In this document: piece after piece, positions 2,164-43,007 of the stretch
Layout: the number at the start of each line of letters is the position of its first letter
How positions within the stretch are numbered: position 1 is the stretch's first letter
Source of the DNA: Patescibacteria group bacterium
GTDB taxonomy: Bacteria > Patescibacteriota > UBA1384 > 2-12-FULL-50-11
NCBI GenBank assembly: GCA_016861245.1
Contig: BOKZ01000001.1
Coordinates: 143,107 to 186,346 of the forward strand
Direction of reading: 5' to 3'
Length of the DNA: 43,240 nucleotides
Position numbers and translations under genes: made by a program
Notes under the pieces: generated by a model
Seen by the model: only the letters and a program-made list of their open reading frames with translations
Databases searched by the model: none
Told to the model about the DNA's origin: nothing

Positions 2164-3039
2164 TTACAGAGCGACATGATGGCACGGAAGATGATCGCGA
2201 TCATCAGCGTTAGTCCCAAGAAAGATCGGTTCAGTTTTGTGTCGCCAGAACTGAACAGCCTCGTAACGATCGTTGAGCGTGGTGTTAGCGTAGATCGTTG
2301 CTCGTTCCAATATCGCCTCGCGGTTTTTTGGTTGGAGCTGGCGCGTCGCGATCGCAGAAGCGCTAATAAACTGAGCAGCAGGGAATATCGTTTCGGCGAT
2401 TTTTGTGCTCACGCCCAAACCGAGCCAAGAAAGAAAAACGTACTTACTGCCGCCAACGGCGGAACGAATTTTGCTAACGCGGCTAGAATTTAACTCCGGC
2501 TCGACGATAAGCTGCCCAAGTATTCGGTAGGTCTGTCTGCCTTCGATCAACTTTGCGTCGACGCGTCTGGCTAAAACGAATGAGGCGAAGCCGTCGTGAT
2601 CGGCTCGCTCCTGGTGAGTTCGCAGCTGCTCGAGATTACCGTAGTCCTGAGCTGCTTCAGATACTTCGTCTAAGCGACCAAATAATATTGAGGTAACTCG
2701 GCCGGCGTACTCGTACCGATACTCGGCTAAAAATTCTGAGTGTTGAGCGTGTTTTAAAAGTGTTGGTTTCGAGTTCCGTGACGGGACGACCGGATTTAGT
2801 AGTCGGATAACTTGCTCAAGATGCGTTTGATTGTTCGGCAGTATCCGACGAATCATCGCTAACTCTTGGTTCAAACTCTTTTCATCACCAACTACTCGCG
2901 CGATTTGCAGCGATTCGACGGCTAACAGCGGGTCGATCAAAATGAGTTTCGGTTTATCCTTCTGTTTTTCTTGTAAAAAAAGCAGTATCACAACGATCAA
3001 AAGAAAGACTGGTGTCAGCCAAAATAGTACGATCGGCAT
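2164..3039 (-). CDS. hypothetical membrane-anchored protein; by-eye resemblance to a degenerate P-type ATPase cytoplasmic loop
   Basis: 291-aa ORF with one N-terminal TM helix (IVLFWLTPVFLLIVVILLFL). The soluble part aligns loosely by eye with the N/P domains of the ATPase at 7191-9902. Examples: LILIDPLLAV vs ICVDKTGTLT, SKYVFLSWLG vs MKVVMITGD, QPKNREAILER vs TPTQKLQIVER, FLGTNADDRDHL vs MTGDGVNDAPAL. Confidence 0.6.
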   Translation of the reverse strand: MPIVLFWLTPVFLLIVVILLFLQEKQKDKPKLILIDPLLAVESLQIARVVGDEKSLNQELAMIRRILPNNQTHLEQVIRLLNPVVPSRNSKPTLLKHAQHSEFLAEYRYEYAGRVTSILFGRLDEVSEAAQDYGNLEQLRTHQERADHDGFASFVLARRVDAKLIEGRQTYRILGQLIVEPELNSSRVSKIRSAVGGSKYVFLSWLGLGVSTKIAETIFPAAQFISASAIATRQLQPKNREAILERATIYANTTLNDRYEAVQFWRHKTEPIFLGTNADDRDHLPCHHVAL

Positions 3040-6405: not shown

Positions 6406-6422
6406 GCGGTCCCGACGGGATT
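6406..6422 (-). repeat. exact 17-nt copy of the tRNA-Glu 3' end (tRNA positions ~58-74)
   Basis: gcggtcccgacgggatt at 6406-6422 is identical to 6555-6571, which lies inside and at the end of tRNA-Glu. It is a direct repeat 132 nt downstream of the tRNA in tRNA sense. Confidence 0.9.
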
Positions 6423-6499
6423 ATTTCGACTTCGTCTCAATACTGTTCCTTCACTCCGTTCGGTCACAGTCGAACCTGTTTTCTTGCGAAAACGGGTTC
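6423..6499 (-). repeat. tRNA-linked conserved non-coding module, copy at the tRNA-Glu locus
   Basis: Colinear with 13033-13112. TTTCGNC starts 2 nt after the 17-nt repeat (second base past it), CYTCACTC 27/28 nt after it, and the 12-mer ACCTGTTTTCTT 52/57 nt after it. The 12-mer is followed by GAAAACGG and TTC, forming a 9-bp hairpin. Confidence 0.75.
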
Positions 6500-6520
6500 T
6501 CACCTTCTAGCCCAATTACC

Positions 6521-6549
6521 AAAAATACCCACGATATGTGAGTATTTTT
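6521..6549 (-). terminator. AT-rich hairpin immediately 3' of tRNA-Glu (possible terminator)
   Basis: Minus sense reads AAAAATACTCAC-ATATC-GTGGGTATTTTT, a 12-bp stem including one G-U. The U run is part of the stem, so function is uncertain. Confidence 0.35.
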
Positions 6550-6555
6550 GACAAG

Positions 6556-6629
6556 CGGTCCCGACGGGATTCGAACCCGTGATCTTCTGGATGAGAACCA
6601 GATATCCTAGGCCACTAGACGACGGGACC
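6556..6629 (-). tRNA. tRNA-Glu (anticodon CUC)
   Basis: Hand-folded cloverleaf: GGTCCCG-TC-GTCT-AGTGGCCTA-GGAT-A-TCTGG-TTCTCAT-CCAGA-AGATC-ACGGG-TTCGAAT-CCCGT-CGGGACC-G. CCA is not encoded. Confidence 0.95.
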
Positions 6630-6631
6630 AT

Positions 6632-6762
6632 ACTGCTAAGTACCATTAGATCGGCTGCGCCGATATCTTCTGGATTTTCCGCGGCTGAAGCCGCTTCAAC
6701 TGCTTTCGCACTTCGTGCTTCAAGCAGCGAACCACCAGACATCTAGGCCCAACGACGGGACC
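6632..6762 (-). pseudogene. degenerate tRNA-Glu-like sequence interrupted in the anticodon loop and lacking a T arm and 3' acceptor strand
   Basis: Minus sense GGTCCCGTCGTTGGGCCTAGATGTCTGGT..(59 nt)..TCCAGAAGAT parallels tRNA-Glu positions 1-33 and 38-47. It then diverges (ATCGGCGCAGCCGATCTAATGG..). No CGGGACC acceptor strand follows before the intact tRNA begins. Confidence 0.45.
6675..6733 (-). repeat. third copy of the tRNA-linked module, inside the anticodon loop of the tRNA-Glu-like sequence
   Basis: The plus-strand order TTTTCC, hairpin GCGGC-TGAA-GCCGC, TTCAAC, ~33 nt, GCGAACC is colinear with 6423-6476 (TTTCG, hairpin, TCAAT, .., TCGAACC). It is also colinear with 13033-13091 (TTTCG, hairpin TCCGCCTTGCGGA, TTCAG, .., TCGCACC). 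Confidence 0.55.
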
Positions 6763-6784
6763 AGTAACCTGTTGTAACAAAATA

Positions 6785-9964: not shown

Positions 9965-10945
9965 CTAGTAGCGTTCAACCGAGATGGAGCCAGTACCAAC
10001 TTCTCCGCGAATCGCGACTTTAACAGTGGCTGTGTCGTAATTATTCGTCTTGTATTCACCGTCACCTTTTAGCTTATTGTTATCGACGGAAAAGCCACCA
10101 AGACCTACTTCATGCTTAATCGCCAGACCAACTTCTTTTGGAAGTCTGATAGAAATTGAGCCAGTGCCAACAGCGAGTTTAATTTCGCTAATAGGTACGC
10201 TTGCAGCGGAAAAGTCGACATCAACAGACCCAGTACCGACTTCAATTGTAGCTGTGTCAACTCTGAGTGTCTTAAGTTCTAGCTCCGCGGCGCCGGTACC
10301 AAGCTCTAGATCAAGGTCAGTCAAAAGTTCTGGCATTCCAAGAGAGAGTTCATAGCGCAACTCACTGAATTCGTTGAACCAGCCACCAAATTTATCGGAC
10401 TGTCTCAACTCAATTTCTAAACTTTGTCCAGATAATGAATGCTCAAACTTCGGCACTCCGAATGTTGTGCTATGTTTAGCGACCAGATTGGCGATCACCG
10501 CTTCAGCTGAATCGTTCAAAATCAATTTTCCCAAACCAAGTTCAGCTTTGACTGTACGCTTTGAAACCGTTGGGTACTCTGTTGAGGCGATAGATTTCTT
10601 AGTTTCTACTGTCTCGCCTTGGCGCAGCACCTTCGTCGCGTCCCAACTTGGCAAATAACGCTTAACCCAATCGTTTATCTGCTGGTTATTGGCGCTAACA
10701 ACTAATGCCAAAATAAATAACACAGCAATTAACGATATTAGTCCTACGATCAGACGAGAGAAGCGCGATCTACCGAAGATCGCTCGCAGCCCCCAGAGAA
10801 TAAAAATAATTGGCCAGAAACGCCAAAGTACGCCCCACACGCTCCATGGTAAGACGCCAAAATTGTTCAATAGAAATATTAACCCAAGTAGAATCAGGAA
10901 GATTGCGCCGACACTGCTGCCACGCCATTCTTTTTCTTGATTCAT
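9965..10945 (-). CDS. membrane protein with a LiaF/toastrack-like (DUF4097/DUF2154-type) C-terminal domain
   Basis: 326 aa. Four N-terminal TM helices are followed by a beta-rich domain with recurring GTGAAELE / GTGSVDVD / GTGSISIR / GTGSISVE motifs. It overlaps the PspC gene by 4 nt. Confidence 0.7.
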   Translation of the reverse strand: MNQEKEWRGSSVGAIFLILLGLIFLLNNFGVLPWSVWGVLWRFWPIIFILWGLRAIFGRSRFSRLIVGLISLIAVLFILALVVSANNQQINDWVKRYLPSWDATKVLRQGETVETKKSIASTEYPTVSKRTVKAELGLGKLILNDSAEAVIANLVAKHSTTFGVPKFEHSLSGQSLEIELRQSDKFGGWFNEFSELRYELSLGMPELLTDLDLELGTGAAELELKTLRVDTATIEVGTGSVDVDFSAASVPISEIKLAVGTGSISIRLPKEVGLAIKHEVGLGGFSVDNNKLKGDGEYKTNNYDTATVKVAIRGEVGTGSISVERY

Positions 10946-11388
10946 TTTCTCCTGACTAAGATCGCTAAGCCCAGCCCAACCAACAACAACGGCCAGAGTT
11001 TACCCAGATCAATACCAAGCGAGAAATTAAAGTTAACTAGTAGAAAATAAGCGCCGATCGCTAATAGAATGACGCCCCACCAAATCTGCGAGGTATCAGT
11101 TTGTGATTGTTTAGATATCTTTTCTGCTACTACTTTAACATTGTTTTTAAGTTCCTCAGCGTTTTGCTTGATAGTTTCTTTTGGCGTCATTTCAGTCGAA
11201 CTTTCTGACGGAATAATTATCATGAGAATTAAGTATGCCAACACCCCGGCGCCGCCGGCAAACGCAATTAGTACGAATATAACTCGAATAATTGTTGGGT
11301 CGATACCAAAATAGTTTCCGATTCCTCCGCATACTCCGGCGATAACTTTGTCGCTTTCGGATCGATAGAGTCGTTTTTGTGTTTCCAT
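10942..11388 (-). CDS. PspC domain-containing membrane protein
   Basis: RLYRSESDKVIAGVCGGIGNYFGIDPTIIRVIFVLIAF is the PspC-domain signature. Further TM helices follow. Confidence 0.85.
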   Translation of the reverse strand: METQKRLYRSESDKVIAGVCGGIGNYFGIDPTIIRVIFVLIAFAGGAGVLAYLILMIIIPSESSTEMTPKETIKQNAEELKNNVKVVAEKISKQSQTDTSQIWWGVILLAIGAYFLLVNFNFSLGIDLGKLWPLLLVGLGLAILVRRK

Positions 11389-13015: not shown

Positions 13016-13032
13016 TGCTCCCGAGCAGGGAT
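13016..13032 (-). repeat. exact 17-nt copy of the tRNA-Gln 3' end (tRNA positions ~59-75)
   Basis: tgctcccgagcagggat at 13016-13032 is identical to 13160-13176. It is a direct repeat 127 nt downstream of the tRNA in tRNA sense. Confidence 0.9.
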
Positions 13033-13112
13033 CTTTCGTCCGCCTTGCGGACTTCAGCGCCTCACTCGCATCGCTCATTCGTCGTCGCACCTGTTTTCTT
13101 TGAAAACGGTTC
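13033..13112 (-). repeat. tRNA-linked conserved non-coding module, copy at the tRNA-Gln locus
   Basis: Colinear blocks shared with 6423-6499: TTTCGTC, hairpin TCCGCCTTGCGGA, CCTCACTCG, TCGCACCTGTTTTCTT-T-GAAAACGG-TTC. Confidence 0.75.
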
Positions 13113-13127
13113 GATCCTTAACGAGCA

Positions 13128-13151
13128 AGTAAAAACCCGCCAAATGGCGGG
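13128..13151 (-). terminator. rho-independent terminator immediately 3' of tRNA-Gln
   Basis: Minus sense CCCGCC-ATTT-GGCGGG followed by TTTTTAC. Confidence 0.6.
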
Positions 13152-13161
13152 CATTTACTTG

Positions 13162-13232
13162 CTCCCGAGCAGGGATTCGAACCCCGGTTACTAGAGCCAG
13201 AATCTAGCGTCCTACCACTAGACGACTCGGGA
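13162..13232 (-). tRNA. tRNA-Gln (anticodon CUG)
   Basis: Hand-folded: TCCCGAG-TC-GTCT-AGTGGTA-GGAC-G-CTAGA-TTCTGGC-TCTAG-TAAC-CGGGG-TTCGAAT-CCCTG-CTCGGGA-G. U1:A72 and G73 fit bacterial Gln identity. CCA is not encoded. Confidence 0.95.
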
Positions 13233-13296
13233 ATGTATATGAAGAATACTCTGAAGAGTTTATCAGAATTATCCTGTTATTTCGAGAAATTAAGTA

Positions 13297-13324
13297 ACAA
13301 AAAGAGGAGTTGTTAGCTCCTCTT
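13297..13324 (-). terminator. rho-independent terminator after the orphan gene
   Basis: Minus sense AAGAGGAG-CTAACAA-CTCCTCTT followed by TTTGTT. A second hairpin (GGCGAC-ACG-GTCGCC, 13325-13339) lies just after the stop. Confidence 0.5.
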
Positions 13325-13347
13325 GGCGACACGGTCGCCGGAAATGG

Positions 13348-13758
13348 TCAATCAATGACCGGGCGGACAAAAAACTCAAGCTGCCCCTGCTTGAGCTCGT
13401 CCTTGCGCAACCAAAGCTCGGTGGCGGCGCTCTTGCTGCTCTTGACGCGAATCGACACGTTCTGTGCCGTGCTGCGCAAGAAACTCAGGAGCGCCCAACC
13501 GATCTCAGACGTCTTGCAGAACGCCTTCAGGTTGGCCTGGACCGTGGGGAAGTCAGGAGAGACGAGGTTCGATTTAAGCTCGAACCACTTCTTCTCGTGC
13601 AGGTAGCGAAGCTTCGTCTCGGACCCGTCCTCGGCAACCAAGACCATGCAGACGTCGCTATCCCGAGCCAGAACTCGGTCGAGAAACTCTGCCAGCACGT
13701 CGAGGGGCGACATCGACTCAACGATCTCGCGGTCGAACAGGATACTTTTAATGCGCAT
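13348..13758 (-). CDS. hypothetical protein (136 aa), compositionally atypical orphan
   Basis: The track ORF starts at TTG 13797, but that TTG is the -35 box of a promoter. The ATG at 13758 (MRIKSILFDREIVESM..) lies 10 nt after a TATAAT box. No family recognised. The gene looks more G+C-rich than its neighbours, though this was not computed. Confidence 0.6.
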   Translation of the reverse strand: MRIKSILFDREIVESMSPLDVLAEFLDRVLARDSDVCMVLVAEDGSETKLRYLHEKKWFELKSNLVSPDFPTVQANLKAFCKTSEIGWALLSFLRSTAQNVSIRVKSSKSAATELWLRKDELKQGQLEFFVRPVID

Positions 13759-13768
13759 AACGGACGAA

Positions 13769-13797
13769 ATTATACGCAAAAACGCTGTATAGATCAA
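13769..13797 (-). promoter_or_regulatory. sigma70-like promoter (TTGATC-N17-TATAAT), near-leaderless
   Basis: Minus sense TTGATC (13797-13792), 17-nt spacer, TATAAT (13774-13769). The ATG is at 13758. Confidence 0.5.
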
Positions 13798-13815
13798 TGA
13801 GTTTTAGTGGAAGTT

Positions 13816-15204
13816 TTAGATCAGTTCAGCTGTATCACCGTACGGCACCGGCGCTTCGTCGTATCGAACGGAGTTCATAAAAATAAACTGAATTAAGGCG
13901 TAAAGCAGGAACGCCAACAAAATCCTTACGAGAACTGTGAAGAACGTCGGTGCCTCACCGGTTTTAACGGTTAACGTCGCCGCGGTTTTGTCGTCAATAA
14001 ACCCGACGTTCCAAGTCGGTGCCGCTTCGATAGTTGAGACGCTGCCTCGTTTTGCGAGGAAAATACTTAATAGTATCGCTGCAAAGCCAACGATAAACAT
14101 CAGCACCACCACCATCACCCGATCGATATTACTAAACAGCAAGCCGAGCAAACTAATACTGCCGCCGACCAAACCAAGCACGGTCATAAATTTTACTCTG
14201 GTTTCCATGCCAATAATTACCACCATTGCTGAGAAAACGACCGAGATTACGGTTAAGATCGTCTCACCACCTTCGGCGCCAATTAGCGTAACAAACGTAA
14301 TAAGCATAGCCGCTGCAATCAGTAGCCTTTGATGGAAAAACTCGAGCCTTGTCCATGGTTTAAAGAGATGGCCAAACAACGCAGCGGTTTTAAGAAGTCC
14401 TACTCCTGTGATGATAGCTGCAAAACCGATAATTGCTGTTCTGTCGCTTGTAACTTGTCTCGTTACGTCACTGACAAGCGAGGAGAAACTAATGATATAA
14501 AGTATCGTTCCGGCCGAGACCAAAGCTGGGATCGACTCTTCCTGGCCTCGTTTCTTGTAAACCCAGGCAGTAATTAAGCCCAAGAGCGATACCACTGTTA
14601 GGATCAGCGAGCTTCTCCAACCGTTCAAATCTTGATCTGTCAGTAAAAAGATAGCCAGCGCAATGAGATTAAGCGTAACAAGCAACGCGCCGTAACTGCG
14701 CTGTTTAACTAGCGCCGCGTACAAGCTAAGCGGTAGGGCTAATAATACGCTGTAAGCCATAAGCAGCGCGTCCGCTTTCTCGTAATAACCAAACTGATAT
14801 AAGAACACCCCTGCAGTAATCGGCAGCATCAAGTGCGCTGCCATGTGCGTTGTCTCCTTAACTGTCTTTAGCTCGTCGCCTTTAGCCAGGAAACTACCGA
14901 TCGCAAATAAAAAGAAGTTCGGGATCGCAATTAGTAAAAATCGGCTAAGGGGTGAGAGTTGCGGCCAGCTGTAGCCGATAAAAGTAACCGCTGCGATAAA
15001 AATGAGGCTTAATCCAGTGATAAGTAGGACGTTTGTACCGCTGAGATGAAGCTGACTCTCTGTTTTTACCGACGCCTCCCCAGCTACTAATCGATGGACA
15101 GCGATCGGATCCCACCCTTTTGAGAGTAGCTCTTGCCGCAGTTGCTCGTCATCAACGCCGCGTGCTCGCTCTTTAGCGATATACTCTCGAAGTTGGTCGT
15201 TCAT
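13816..15204 (-). CDS. polytopic membrane protein of unknown function
   Basis: 462 aa. A short soluble N-terminus (MNDQLREYIAKERARGVDDEQLRQELLSKGW) is followed by more than 10 hydrophobic helices. Confidence 0.7.
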   Translation of the reverse strand: MNDQLREYIAKERARGVDDEQLRQELLSKGWDPIAVHRLVAGEASVKTESQLHLSGTNVLLITGLSLIFIAAVTFIGYSWPQLSPLSRFLLIAIPNFFLFAIGSFLAKGDELKTVKETTHMAAHLMLPITAGVFLYQFGYYEKADALLMAYSVLLALPLSLYAALVKQRSYGALLVTLNLIALAIFLLTDQDLNGWRSSLILTVVSLLGLITAWVYKKRGQEESIPALVSAGTILYIISFSSLVSDVTRQVTSDRTAIIGFAAIITGVGLLKTAALFGHLFKPWTRLEFFHQRLLIAAAMLITFVTLIGAEGGETILTVISVVFSAMVVIIGMETRVKFMTVLGLVGGSISLLGLLFSNIDRVMVVVLMFIVGFAAILLSIFLAKRGSVSTIEAAPTWNVGFIDDKTAATLTVKTGEAPTFFTVLVRILLAFLLYALIQFIFMNSVRYDEAPVPYGDTAELI

Positions 15205-28546: not shown

Positions 28547-29494
28547 GTGAACATGAAAGTTACACGTGCAATTAAAGATTACATTAAGCACTGTCGCGTC
28601 AGTCGCGGGTATTCGCCGTACACTATCCGCAATTATCAAAACTATCTACTAGCGCTTGAACGCTGGTGTCAGCAGAATAATGTATCTGAGATCGAGCAGC
28701 TAACAAGAAGCGATATCGAGGATTTCCAACTTTCTCTGATTGAGGGCAACCCGACGATGAGTAAACGAACTCAGAATTACTATCTCATCAGTATCCGTTC
28801 GTTGTTTAAGTACTTGATCGACCGAGACGTTACCGTTCTGTCGCCTGAAAAAATTACACTTTCGAAAACTCCGGGTCGCGAGATTCACGCGCTTGAGCCA
28901 GACGAGATAGCGAGAATGTCCGAGCCGCAAACTAGCTCAATTAACGACTTGCGCGACAGCGCGATCGTCAACGTCTTATTCTCAACCGGAATGAGAGTAA
29001 GCGAGCTGCTCTCGCTAAAAAGAGCAGATATCAACCTGGAGCGCGGCGAATTTAGCGTTCGCGGTAAGGGTAACAAGGTGCGACCGGTATTTCTAACTGA
29101 AGACGCCACAGCAGCGCTTAAAAAATACTTACAACTACGCACCGACAAGAACCCATACGTTTTTACGCAACACCACCAAAAAACGAATCGATCCGTACCG
29201 CTTAGCGCTCGCGGCATCCAAAGGTGTCTAAATCGTTTAGCCAAACTGGCCGGTATTGTTAAGCCGGTTTCCCCGCATAAACTCCGTCACAGTTTTGCAA
29301 CGGAGCTACTGAGAAACGGTGCAGACCTACGCGCGGTACAAGCGATGCTCGGCCACTCGTCGATTACCACAACTCAGGTTTACACCCATGTAACAGATAA
29401 AAACCTTCAAGAAATACATCGGCGTTTTCATAATCAGAAGACAACGCCGGAACGATTAGTCGAATCAGAACCCAAATCGGGTCAGGTGTCTTGA
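28547..29494 (+). CDS. tyrosine site-specific recombinase, XerC/XerD-like
   Basis: SAM-like N-domain plus catalytic residues in MRVSELLSL, LRHSFATELLRNGADLRAVQAMLGHSSITTTQVYTHV. GTG 28547 or ATG 28553 could be the start. Confidence 0.9.
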   Translation: MNMKVTRAIKDYIKHCRVSRGYSPYTIRNYQNYLLALERWCQQNNVSEIEQLTRSDIEDFQLSLIEGNPTMSKRTQNYYLISIRSLFKYLIDRDVTVLSPEKITLSKTPGREIHALEPDEIARMSEPQTSSINDLRDSAIVNVLFSTGMRVSELLSLKRADINLERGEFSVRGKGNKVRPVFLTEDATAALKKYLQLRTDKNPYVFTQHHQKTNRSVPLSARGIQRCLNRLAKLAGIVKPVSPHKLRHSFATELLRNGADLRAVQAMLGHSSITTTQVYTHVTDKNLQEIHRRFHNQKTTPERLVESEPKSGQVS

Positions 29495-42870: not shown

Positions 42871-43007
42871 TGGAGCGGGTGGACGGATTCGAACCGCCGA
42901 CCTCCTGCGTCTGCTTCGCTGTGGCAAGCCCCAGAAGCTGGTTACCTACCCTCTTGATTTTTTCGCTAAGCTTGGCAAGCGCTCTAACCGCGTTGAGCTA
43001 CACCCGC
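42871..43007 (-). tRNA. tRNA-Gly-like gene with ~60 extra nt in the anticodon arm (137 nt, CCA encoded)
   Basis: Minus sense: GCGGGTG-TA-GCTC-AACGCGGTTA-GAGC-G-CTTGC-[66 nt]-GCAGG-AGGTC-GGCGG-TTCGAAT-CCGTC-CACCCGC-T-CCA. G1:C72, C2:G71, G3:C70 and U73 fit Gly identity. The 66 nt contain two TTGCCA (GCC anticodon-like) motifs. Confidence 0.7.

Follow-up and report, generated by a model that had tools for sequence, protein, structure and literature searches.

A stretch of 43,240 nucleotides of contig BOKZ01000001.1 from a Patescibacteria group bacterium (referred to here as the window) carries three insertions at its tRNA genes, X1, X2 and Y. Each is bounded by direct repeats and is absent, at a precise empty site, from sister strains. 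X1 and X2 have a 22-nt hairpin in common (H0). Relatives of these two units are present at several tRNA genes and in several genomes, and one of the relatives carries cargo. The explanation favored here, to which we give about an even chance, is that X1 and X2 are miniature, non-autonomous, gene-less tRNA-targeting integrative elements of Patescibacteria, moved by a recombinase in trans.

A sequence-only reading of the window had described a conserved non-coding module of 55-80 nt in three copies (copy 1, 6423-6499; copy 2, 13033-13112; copy 3, 6675-6733), always joined to tRNA sequence at a loop position. All the sequence features that it listed are present. The module is not a payload in itself, however. 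It is best read as the conserved right-hand part of X1/X2-type units, which are complete insertions of 144-149 bp with a replacement tRNA 3' end and a terminator.

Insertions and empty sites at the tRNA genes

Contigs of the same species from other samples, with DNA 98-99% identical to the window, were retrieved through the DUF2207 protein that flanks tRNA-Glu. Among strains in which this protein is identical, the gap between the response-regulator gene and the DUF2207 gene is either 158 bp or 440 bp, and the tRNA-Gln locus is either 165 bp or 832 bp. In contigs L001, L003 and L004 the 158-bp gap holds a single intact tRNA-Glu gene, and its flanks match the outer edges of the 440-bp region of the window. 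Contigs L002, L005 and L012 are filled at tRNA-Glu, in the manner of the window. At tRNA-Gln, L001 and L003 have a single tRNA, in 165 bp as compared to 832 bp in the window, between the same outer flanks. Both tRNA genes are 100% identical between filled and empty-site strains, and each state is present in several independent samples. An outgroup species (L141), with 53% protein identity and the gene order of the window, has the empty arrangement as well, a single tRNA-Glu with its own terminator and without the module. In view of the precise empty sites in the sister strains, the window therefore carries three discrete insertions.

Repeat finding gives repeat-to-repeat spacings of 149, 144 and 133 bp in the window, for direct repeats of 17, 17 and 12 nt, respectively. 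X1 (149 bp) is located in tRNA-Glu and X2 (144 bp) in tRNA-Gln, and the 17-nt repeats of both are perfect (Table 1). Y (133 bp) is located at the 5' end of tRNA-Glu and contains copy 3; its repeats are at 6619-6630 and 6752-6763.

X1 and X2 have the same layout, described here along the minus strand. A copy of the last 17 nt of the tRNA is followed by an intrinsic terminator, a spacer, H0, the motif GGTKCGA(C), about 45 nt with two small variable hairpins, GAAA(T/G), and finally the displaced native end of the tRNA. The displaced 17-nt block begins in the T loop of the tRNA in both units. The unit brings its own copy of the last 17 nt, and therefore the tRNA gene stays intact. The junctions of the module with the T loop (X1 and X2, through the exact 17-nt copies of the tRNA 3' end) or the anticodon loop (copy 3, between the strands of the anticodon stem) are thus as first described. 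The hairpin said to be identical in two copies is H0, for which the pattern CCGTTTTC-N3/4-GAAAACAGGT has two exact matches in the window, with none expected by chance. A hairpin is present 3-8 nt ahead of the right boundary in every unit. The terminator of X2 is embedded in a 20-nt, 90% complementary inverted repeat that extends into the tRNA end. No terminal inverted repeats were found in X1 or X2, and no promoter is predicted inside them.

A tRNA-gene island is defined by a split gene that the island restores and by a displaced fragment that marks its far end (Islander; PMC4383910). This is the arrangement of X1 and X2. The tRNA is split in its 3' part and restored, the displaced fragment is at the far end, and the attachment site (attB) is unoccupied in close relatives.

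Table 1. Features of the three insertions and their host tRNA genes (positions in the window)
Feature	Position	Strand	Basis
Displaced native tRNA-Glu 3' end, AATCCCGTCGGGACCGC, right direct repeat of X1	6406-6422	-	Exact 17-nt repeat of 6555-6571; then flank as after the lone tRNA-Glu in L001, L003 and L004
X1 variable module M: GGTTCGA, stem-loop 1 (CTGT...ACAG), TATTGA, stem-loop 2 (GAC GAA GTC), GAAAT	6423-6473	-	Sequence and predicted fold
H0 of X1, CCGTTTTC GCAA GAAAACAGGT	6474-6495	-	Exact pattern match, 0 expected by chance; covariance model R1, 70.7 bits
X1 left part: spacer 6496-6520, intrinsic-terminator-like hairpin AAAAATACTCAC/GTGGGTATTTTT 6521-6549, TTGTC	6496-6554	-	Sequence; 30-nt imperfect inverted repeat centered here
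Intact tRNA-Glu(CUC), ending in the left direct repeat of X1 (last 17 nt, 6555-6571)	6555-6629	-	ARAGORN; Rfam, 62.6 bits
Y: 133-bp insertion with diverged tRNA-Glu-like 5' part, copy 3 (6675-6733) replacing the anticodon loop, ATCCAGAAGAT, small hairpin	6631-6763	-	Direct repeat; absent from L001, L003 and L004
Displaced native tRNA-Gln 3' end, ATCCCTGCTCGGGAGCA, right direct repeat of X2	13016-13032	-	Exact 17-nt repeat of 13160-13176; flank identical to empty-site L001
X2 variable module M: GGTGCGA, variable stretch, CTGAAG, stem-loop TCCGC AAG GCGGA, CGAAAG	13033-13088	-	Sequence; predicted fold z-score -2.7 to -2.9
H0 of X2, CCGTTTTC AAA GAAAACAGGT	13089-13109	-	Exact pattern match; covariance model R1, 69.1 bits
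X2 left part: spacer and strong intrinsic terminator GCCCGCC ATTT GGCGGGT TTTT (13135-13152)	13110-13159	-	Terminator scan
Intact tRNA-Gln(CUG); 3' end 13160-13176 is the left direct repeat of X2	13161-13232	-	ARAGORN; Rfam, 61.2 bits

The filled loci have another difference, unrelated to X1, X2 and Y. An indel of 553 bp (13270-13816) is located upstream of the tRNA-Gln promoter region, where the empty-site strains have 23 bp instead. It contains an open reading frame (ORF; 13348-13797 on the minus strand, 136-149 aa) with its own terminator (13302-13324), and this ORF has no Pfam or NCBIfam match. The indel accompanies X1, X2 and Y in every contig seen.

Copy 3, insertion Y and the possibility of an RNA module

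The claim of three conserved copies stands for copies 1 and 2, which are related through H0 and GGTKCGAC only. Their alignment score is 38, compared to a maximum of 28 for shuffled sequences, and once H0 and GGTKCGAC are removed the remainder is no more alike than shuffled sequence. Copy 3 shares the order of the motifs, but not a significant similarity. Its comparison with copies 1 and 2 is equaled by 57/1000 and 492/1000 shuffles, respectively, and it is missed by the covariance model of the H0 core. A descriptor of the motif order (GGTKCG, 30-50 nt, TGAR, small hairpin, GAAA) matches exactly three sites in the window, with an average of 0.095 hits in shuffles; it was written with all three copies in view, and is therefore a lenient test. 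From their sequences, there appear to be two homologous copies and one architecturally similar element, all joined to tRNA at loop positions. The homology of Y to X1 and X2 is uncertain.

The tRNA-Glu-like 5' part of Y (6763-6640) is significantly similar to tRNA-Glu, with 2/500 shuffles scoring as well, and copy 3 sits between the two strands of its anticodon stem. This tRNA-like host has no acceptor 3' strand. With a native promoter-like site upstream (6813-6785), Y would be transcribed as a leader of the tRNA. The fold z-scores are -2.1 to -3.2 for Y and -2.7 for X2.

These features of Y bear on an RNA-level explanation. In this, the module would be a structured RNA, either a small RNA (sRNA) linked to a tRNA or one that itself resembles a tRNA, or else a short, intron-like cassette with tRNA loops as its target; its surroundings resemble a T arm in X1 and X2 and are an anticodon loop in Y. 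The motif order is seen three times, each at a loop position, and Y would be the leader described above. The hairpins show compensatory changes, the folds of X2 and Y have moderate z-scores, and a tRNA-Gly in the window bears an unrelated anticodon-loop insertion of about 46-59 nt. In X1 and X2, however, the intact tRNA is beside the module and not around it, with a terminator between them, and the units have no predicted promoter. The fold z-score of X1 is weak (-0.7 to -1.4), and the likeness of copy 3 to the other two copies is not significant. Moreover, tRNA is the sole family to pass in an Rfam scan of both regions; the remaining hits are weak and stem from tRNA or terminator sequence, and no other family is matched, including the intron families. 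The intron-like and sRNA alternatives raised by the sequence-only reading thus received no positive support, and we consider the RNA-level explanation very unlikely.

A related proposal, which we regard as quite unlikely, gives the variable module of about 55-60 nt (GGTKCG, two hairpins, GAAA) a mobility of its own. It would be a mobile intron-like cassette for tRNA loops, or else H0 would direct an undescribed recombination or nicking system acting in trans and specialized on tRNA T loops.

The interrupted tRNA-Gly is a separate observation. The tRNA genes of the window are all on the minus strand, and Rfam adds to tRNA-Glu and tRNA-Gln a third, interrupted one at 42874-43007. In this tRNA-Gly(GCC)-like gene the acceptor, D and T arms are intact, CCA is encoded and the terminator is good, but the anticodon-loop region has about 59 extra nucleotides. 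It scores 49 bits with Rfam, and ARAGORN finds it in intron mode only, with a 46-nt intron. GCTTGCCA flanks the insert on both sides. The insert is also present in a 96%-identical strain (L145) and in L007/L008, and a sister species (L144) has a different tRNA at this position. If this is the sole tRNA-Gly(GCC) gene, the insert must be removed from the transcript. If the module is a cassette, then together with this gene it would mean that these bacteria carry, and must process, short tRNA insertions other than group I introns.

Relatives in other genomes and a cargo island

The covariance-model search proposed by the sequence-only reading did recover further copies, all of them downstream of tRNA genes. 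In about 1 Mb of fetched loci, model R1 matches solely downstream of tRNA-Glu in L010 and L081 and of tRNA-Cys in L025/L133. L010 and L011 are from a sister species (81% protein identity to the window species), L081 is the Patescibacteria isolate LejiaD_49_69, and L025/L133 represent an uncultured bacterium (733-kb contig) whose genome is similar to those of the Candidate Phyla Radiation (CPR). A scan of species-representative genomes with a relaxed pattern gave at least 119 matches, mostly a conserved Collinsella motif and chance matches; among the matches listed, L081, L025 and L133 are real by their covariance-model scores. The exact H0 pattern has no match in the genome contigs scanned, and scans of viral and JGI metagenome contigs gave chance matches only, inside coding regions.

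For the unit in L081, downstream of tRNA-Glu(UUC), the repeat-to-repeat distance is again exactly 149 bp, and it aligns with X1 from end to end at 75% identity, the terminator-like hairpin and its flanks included. The rest of this 8-kb locus, apart from the tRNA, has no DNA-level match to the window species. The conservation of length and of 75% identity in a distant genome therefore points to miniature elements of a defined kind rather than to random scars. The stretch from the intact tRNA-Glu(UUC) to the 149-bp unit also holds a decayed copy of tRNA positions ~44-75 (4422-4490 of L081; ATCACATGTTCAACTCCCGTTGGGAGCGC), with an antisense T-stem piece ahead of it, which suggests layered insertions at this tRNA.

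The relative in the sister species carries cargo. The order in L010/L011 is tRNA-Glu, terminator, 2.7 kb with an AbiEii gene, the H0 module, tRNA 3' fragments, and then the same flank before the DUF2207 gene as in the window species. The island (1-2780 of L010) encodes three ORFs only, ORF169, a 68-aa protein and an AbiEii-family toxin. The module is thus at the attR-side end of a 2.7-kb cargo island here, which bears out part of the earlier suggestion of an integrative-element scar, while the units in the window look defined. Homologs of AbiEii in Doudnabacteria, Jorgensenbacteria, Levybacteria, Falkowbacteria, Omnitrophota and others, with many CPR phyla among them, share about 70% identity. 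This is unusually high for hosts so distant, and the gene is therefore taken to be mobile cargo. Elsewhere, AbiEii is found beside tRNA-Ala in L146 and beside tRNA-Gly in L149, without the H0 module. The three contigs with the AbiE island all break within the tRNA.

Covariation, a check proposed by the sequence-only reading, is seen at one pair of H0 and at one pair of stem-loop 1. The structure of H0 is fully conserved in an alignment of the four best copies, and one pair is U-A in two of them and G-C in the other two; the compensatory change in L010 gives CCGGTTTGC/GCAAACGG. In stem-loop 1, X1 has CTGT/ACAG and L081 has CTGC/GCAG.

In L025, tRNA-Cys is followed by two units, and H0 belongs to the second. 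This genome has a clear antisense copy of the tRNA 3' half (14-nt exact matches split by a hairpin), and in L081 such a copy is significant (4/500 shuffles). It is not significant in X1 or X2, and is therefore not taken as a defining feature. The same contig shows a wider pattern, shared with L133. At 1800-2090, 2700-3020 and 3100-3500 of L025, the genes for tRNA-Leu(TAG), tRNA-Leu(TAA) and tRNA-Cys each have a terminator behind them, after which the 3' strands of the acceptor and T arms of the same tRNA recur in antisense. These antisense copies are split by a conserved hairpin (AGCAAGCAAACTGCTTTGCTTGCGT and variants), and later there is a direct copy of the 3' end from the T loop, with AAAAATTATCTRTGACCGA ahead of it. 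The unit after tRNA-Leu(TAG) in L025 is missing from the 97%-identical genome L133.

The flanking repeats differ in length, being 17 nt in X1 and in X2, 12 nt in Y, 28 nt with 3 mismatches in L081, and 11 nt in L010. The variation among the H0-bearing units (17, 17, 28 and 11 nt) therefore points to blocks of identity between attP and attB, and not to a fixed staggered cut. A casposon-like target-site duplication of a fixed 17 bp was rejected on the lengths in L081, L010 and Y, and on the lack of terminal inverted repeats.

The same variation bears on the idea that the module and the 17-nt tRNA match form a guide RNA, similar to the homing CRISPR RNA of type V-K CRISPR-transposons or the omega RNA of TnpB. 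In both X1 and X2, a scaffold-like hairpin with GAAA at its end does precede a stretch that matches the tRNA over exactly 17 nt. In the relatives, the match ranges from 11 to 28 nt. Pfam scans of the window and the related loci found no cas12k, tnpB or Tn7-like genes, and there are no CRISPR repeats and no Rfam match; moreover, the target tRNA is merely about 130 nt away. The absence of effector and transposase genes, the lack of an Rfam match and the variable match length largely refute this idea, which is extremely improbable.

The Collinsella motif surfaced solely through its fit to the search pattern. It is found in many Collinsella species, at about 70 further loci (L023-L139) and at 4170-4300 of L022, is apparently intergenic, and contains two hairpins, GTCTCACCAAAGTTGAGAC and GTTTTCGCAGGAAAAC, with GGGTGCGACTCGGAGCC behind them. 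Rfam gives no match for it, and no Pfam domains are present in the adjoining ORFs.

Proposed mode of movement and comparison with known systems

We infer a site-specific recombination between the tRNA 3' end (attB) and the identical block on the element (attP), by which a unit would enter or leave. The recombinase would be made elsewhere and act in trans, and it or its helpers would recognize an arm formed by H0 and the hairpin region. Larger relatives can hold cargo between the terminator side and the H0 side, where the 2.7-kb AbiE island of L010 is located. The units in the window may still be mobile.

Several observations weigh against such movement. In Pfam scans of the window and the related loci, X1, X2, Y and the L010 island lack a recombinase gene, and so do the several kb around every copy. 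Targeting of the integrase type was a sensible lead of the sequence-only reading, but an integrase is missing in and near every copy. X1, X2 and Y are too small to hold a gene, and no integrase lies inside them. The window has a single tyrosine recombinase, of the Xer type (28547-29494), whose gene is 15 kb distant and in a housekeeping setting. Neither an excised circle nor an attP junction was observed in the assembled contigs, and tyrosine recombinases would have to act on a very small circle, of about 149 bp. The family has only five members among the matches listed.

In addition, the filled and empty haplotypes differ in their flanks on one side as well. L001 is identical to the window over 2.4 kb downstream of the X1 site and is 2-6% diverged just upstream. 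In L012, identity extends over about 2 kb around the filled locus, in a background that is otherwise 2-3% diverged. Such a pattern has alleles moving by homologous recombination, as the filled allele appears to have done between strains, and recent transposition is not demonstrated by it. The empty alleles could also stem from deletion between the direct repeats instead of excision.

A further difference between strains is located between the two tRNA loci (9965-11388 of the window, as compared to 5095-6699 of L001 and 4813-6417 of L012). One allele there is a PspC/LiaF gene pair, and the other is a gene in the reverse orientation for a 534-aa M48-peptidase/CHAP protein. All four combinations of these two alleles with filled and empty tRNA sites exist, and recombination between strains is therefore indicated.

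The recombination tracts are consistent with inert scars, in which X1, X2 and Y would be immobile, att-proximal remains of larger integrase-bearing islands, and the strains would differ by repeat deletion or allele exchange. The lack of a recombinase in or near every copy, the larger island bordered by the same right end in L010, and the decayed direct repeats in L010 and L081 agree with this origin. On the other hand, independent deletions would not yield units of 149, 149 and 144 bp with an identical internal order, or 75% identity between distant genomes with no alignment in their other DNA. The window has perfect direct repeats, and H0 is conserved, with a compensatory change. Inert scars are on balance an unlikely origin.

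H0 and its neighborhood could also suggest mobilization as single-stranded DNA. H0 and GGTKCGA would then be the site recognized and nicked by an enzyme of the histidine-hydrophobe-histidine (HUH) type (a relaxase at its origin of transfer, oriT, or an IS200/IS605-, IS91- or Helitron-like enzyme), and the small hairpin near the right boundary of every unit would be the termination signal. The hairpin H0 is conserved, although its loop varies, and the motif GGTKCGA that comes after it is conserved as well. H0 loosely resembles the repeat/nick region of R1162/RSF1010, CCAGTTTCTCGAAGAGAAACCGGTAAGTGCG, a short and gapped resemblance without statistical support. This sequence, which we take to be the oriT of R1162/RSF1010 (MOBQ-type), occurs in 135 plasmids, all of them predicted to be mobilizable. 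However, blastn of the module against plasmids gives chance hits only, and the scans of the window and related loci found no relaxase or HUH gene near any copy. Such element families, moreover, are not known to leave direct repeats of 11-28 nt that match the target. A mechanism of this kind is decidedly improbable.

Integrative elements of the tRNA-targeting type are the closest in plan to X1 and X2. The likeness to tRNA-gene islands and prophages that use a tyrosine integrase includes the entry at the T loop, within the 3' part of the gene, the restoring copy of the 3' end, the displaced fragment at the far end, the precise empty sites in relatives, and cargo islands at the same site. An attP core in a tRNA T loop has been documented for phage Ms6 (PMC1762012). 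In contrast to the kilobases of such islands, the X units measure 144-149 bp and have no integrase or any other gene. They consist of a terminator and a conserved hairpin module, with their length kept across distant genomes.

The nearest named category is the cis-mobilizable element (CIME), which has kept attL and attR and lost the integration genes (PMC6323972). X1 and X2 likewise have perfect, intact flanking repeats and no genes, recombination genes included, and their recombinase is presumed to come from elsewhere. However, CIMEs are kilobase-sized decay products of known integrative and conjugative elements (ICEs), with a cognate ICE in the species, while the X units are about 150 bp, uniform and without a known parent. 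No cognate ICE or integrase for the X attachment site was seen in about 57 kb of this genome.

Other small elements show a partial likeness. Integrative mobile elements exploiting Xer (IMEXs) use the host Xer recombinase and integrate at dif, the site of chromosome dimer resolution. They have no recombinase of their own, as is the case for the X units, and a host Xer-type enzyme is the only one in the window; the target is dif, however, and not a tRNA gene. A use of Xer by the X units is pure speculation. The X units are similar to miniature inverted-repeat transposable elements (MITEs) in being very small, non-coding, structured, non-autonomous and variably present between strains, but they lack terminal inverted repeats and a fixed short duplication, and their flanking repeats are 11-28 nt of tRNA sequence. 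Archaeal tRNAs have short introns, for which transposition between tRNA loops has been proposed. A cassette of about 55-60 nt at a tRNA loop is similar to these for Y and the tRNA-Gly insertion only. The host here is a bacterium, X1 and X2 leave the functional tRNA uninterrupted, and neither a bulge-helix-bulge motif nor a splicing enzyme was seen. Literature searches found no account of such elements in CPR bacteria.

The surroundings of the units are core chromosome. The window encodes HisRS, GluRS, ribosomal protein L19, DnaE, NDK, EF-P, LiaF/PspC and type IV pilus genes in addition to the Xer-type recombinase. The DUF2207 protein has named homologs at about 50% identity only, in Candidatus Andersenbacteria and other Parcubacteria. 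In the empty strains its gene is only 24 nt downstream of tRNA-Glu, and X1 places a terminator between the two, so that the expression of the neighbor would be altered.

Genes for tRNA are classic landing sites of islands, and the elements described so far are kilobases long, with an integrase encoded or recently lost. The plan of a tRNA-targeting integrative element is thus known. What is new is that a replacement tRNA end, a terminator and a conserved hairpin module make up the whole unit, within about 150 bp, and the interest of this would be larger if the trans-acting enzyme or an RNA-level mechanism proves new. If the units are truly mobile, they would be the integrative-element counterpart of MITEs, and a minimal pair of att sites with a recognition sequence that is directly testable. 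Their mobility would also explain why tRNA loci break assemblies and vary between strains, and it would mean that a trans-acting recombinase is widespread in the poorly understood Patescibacteria.

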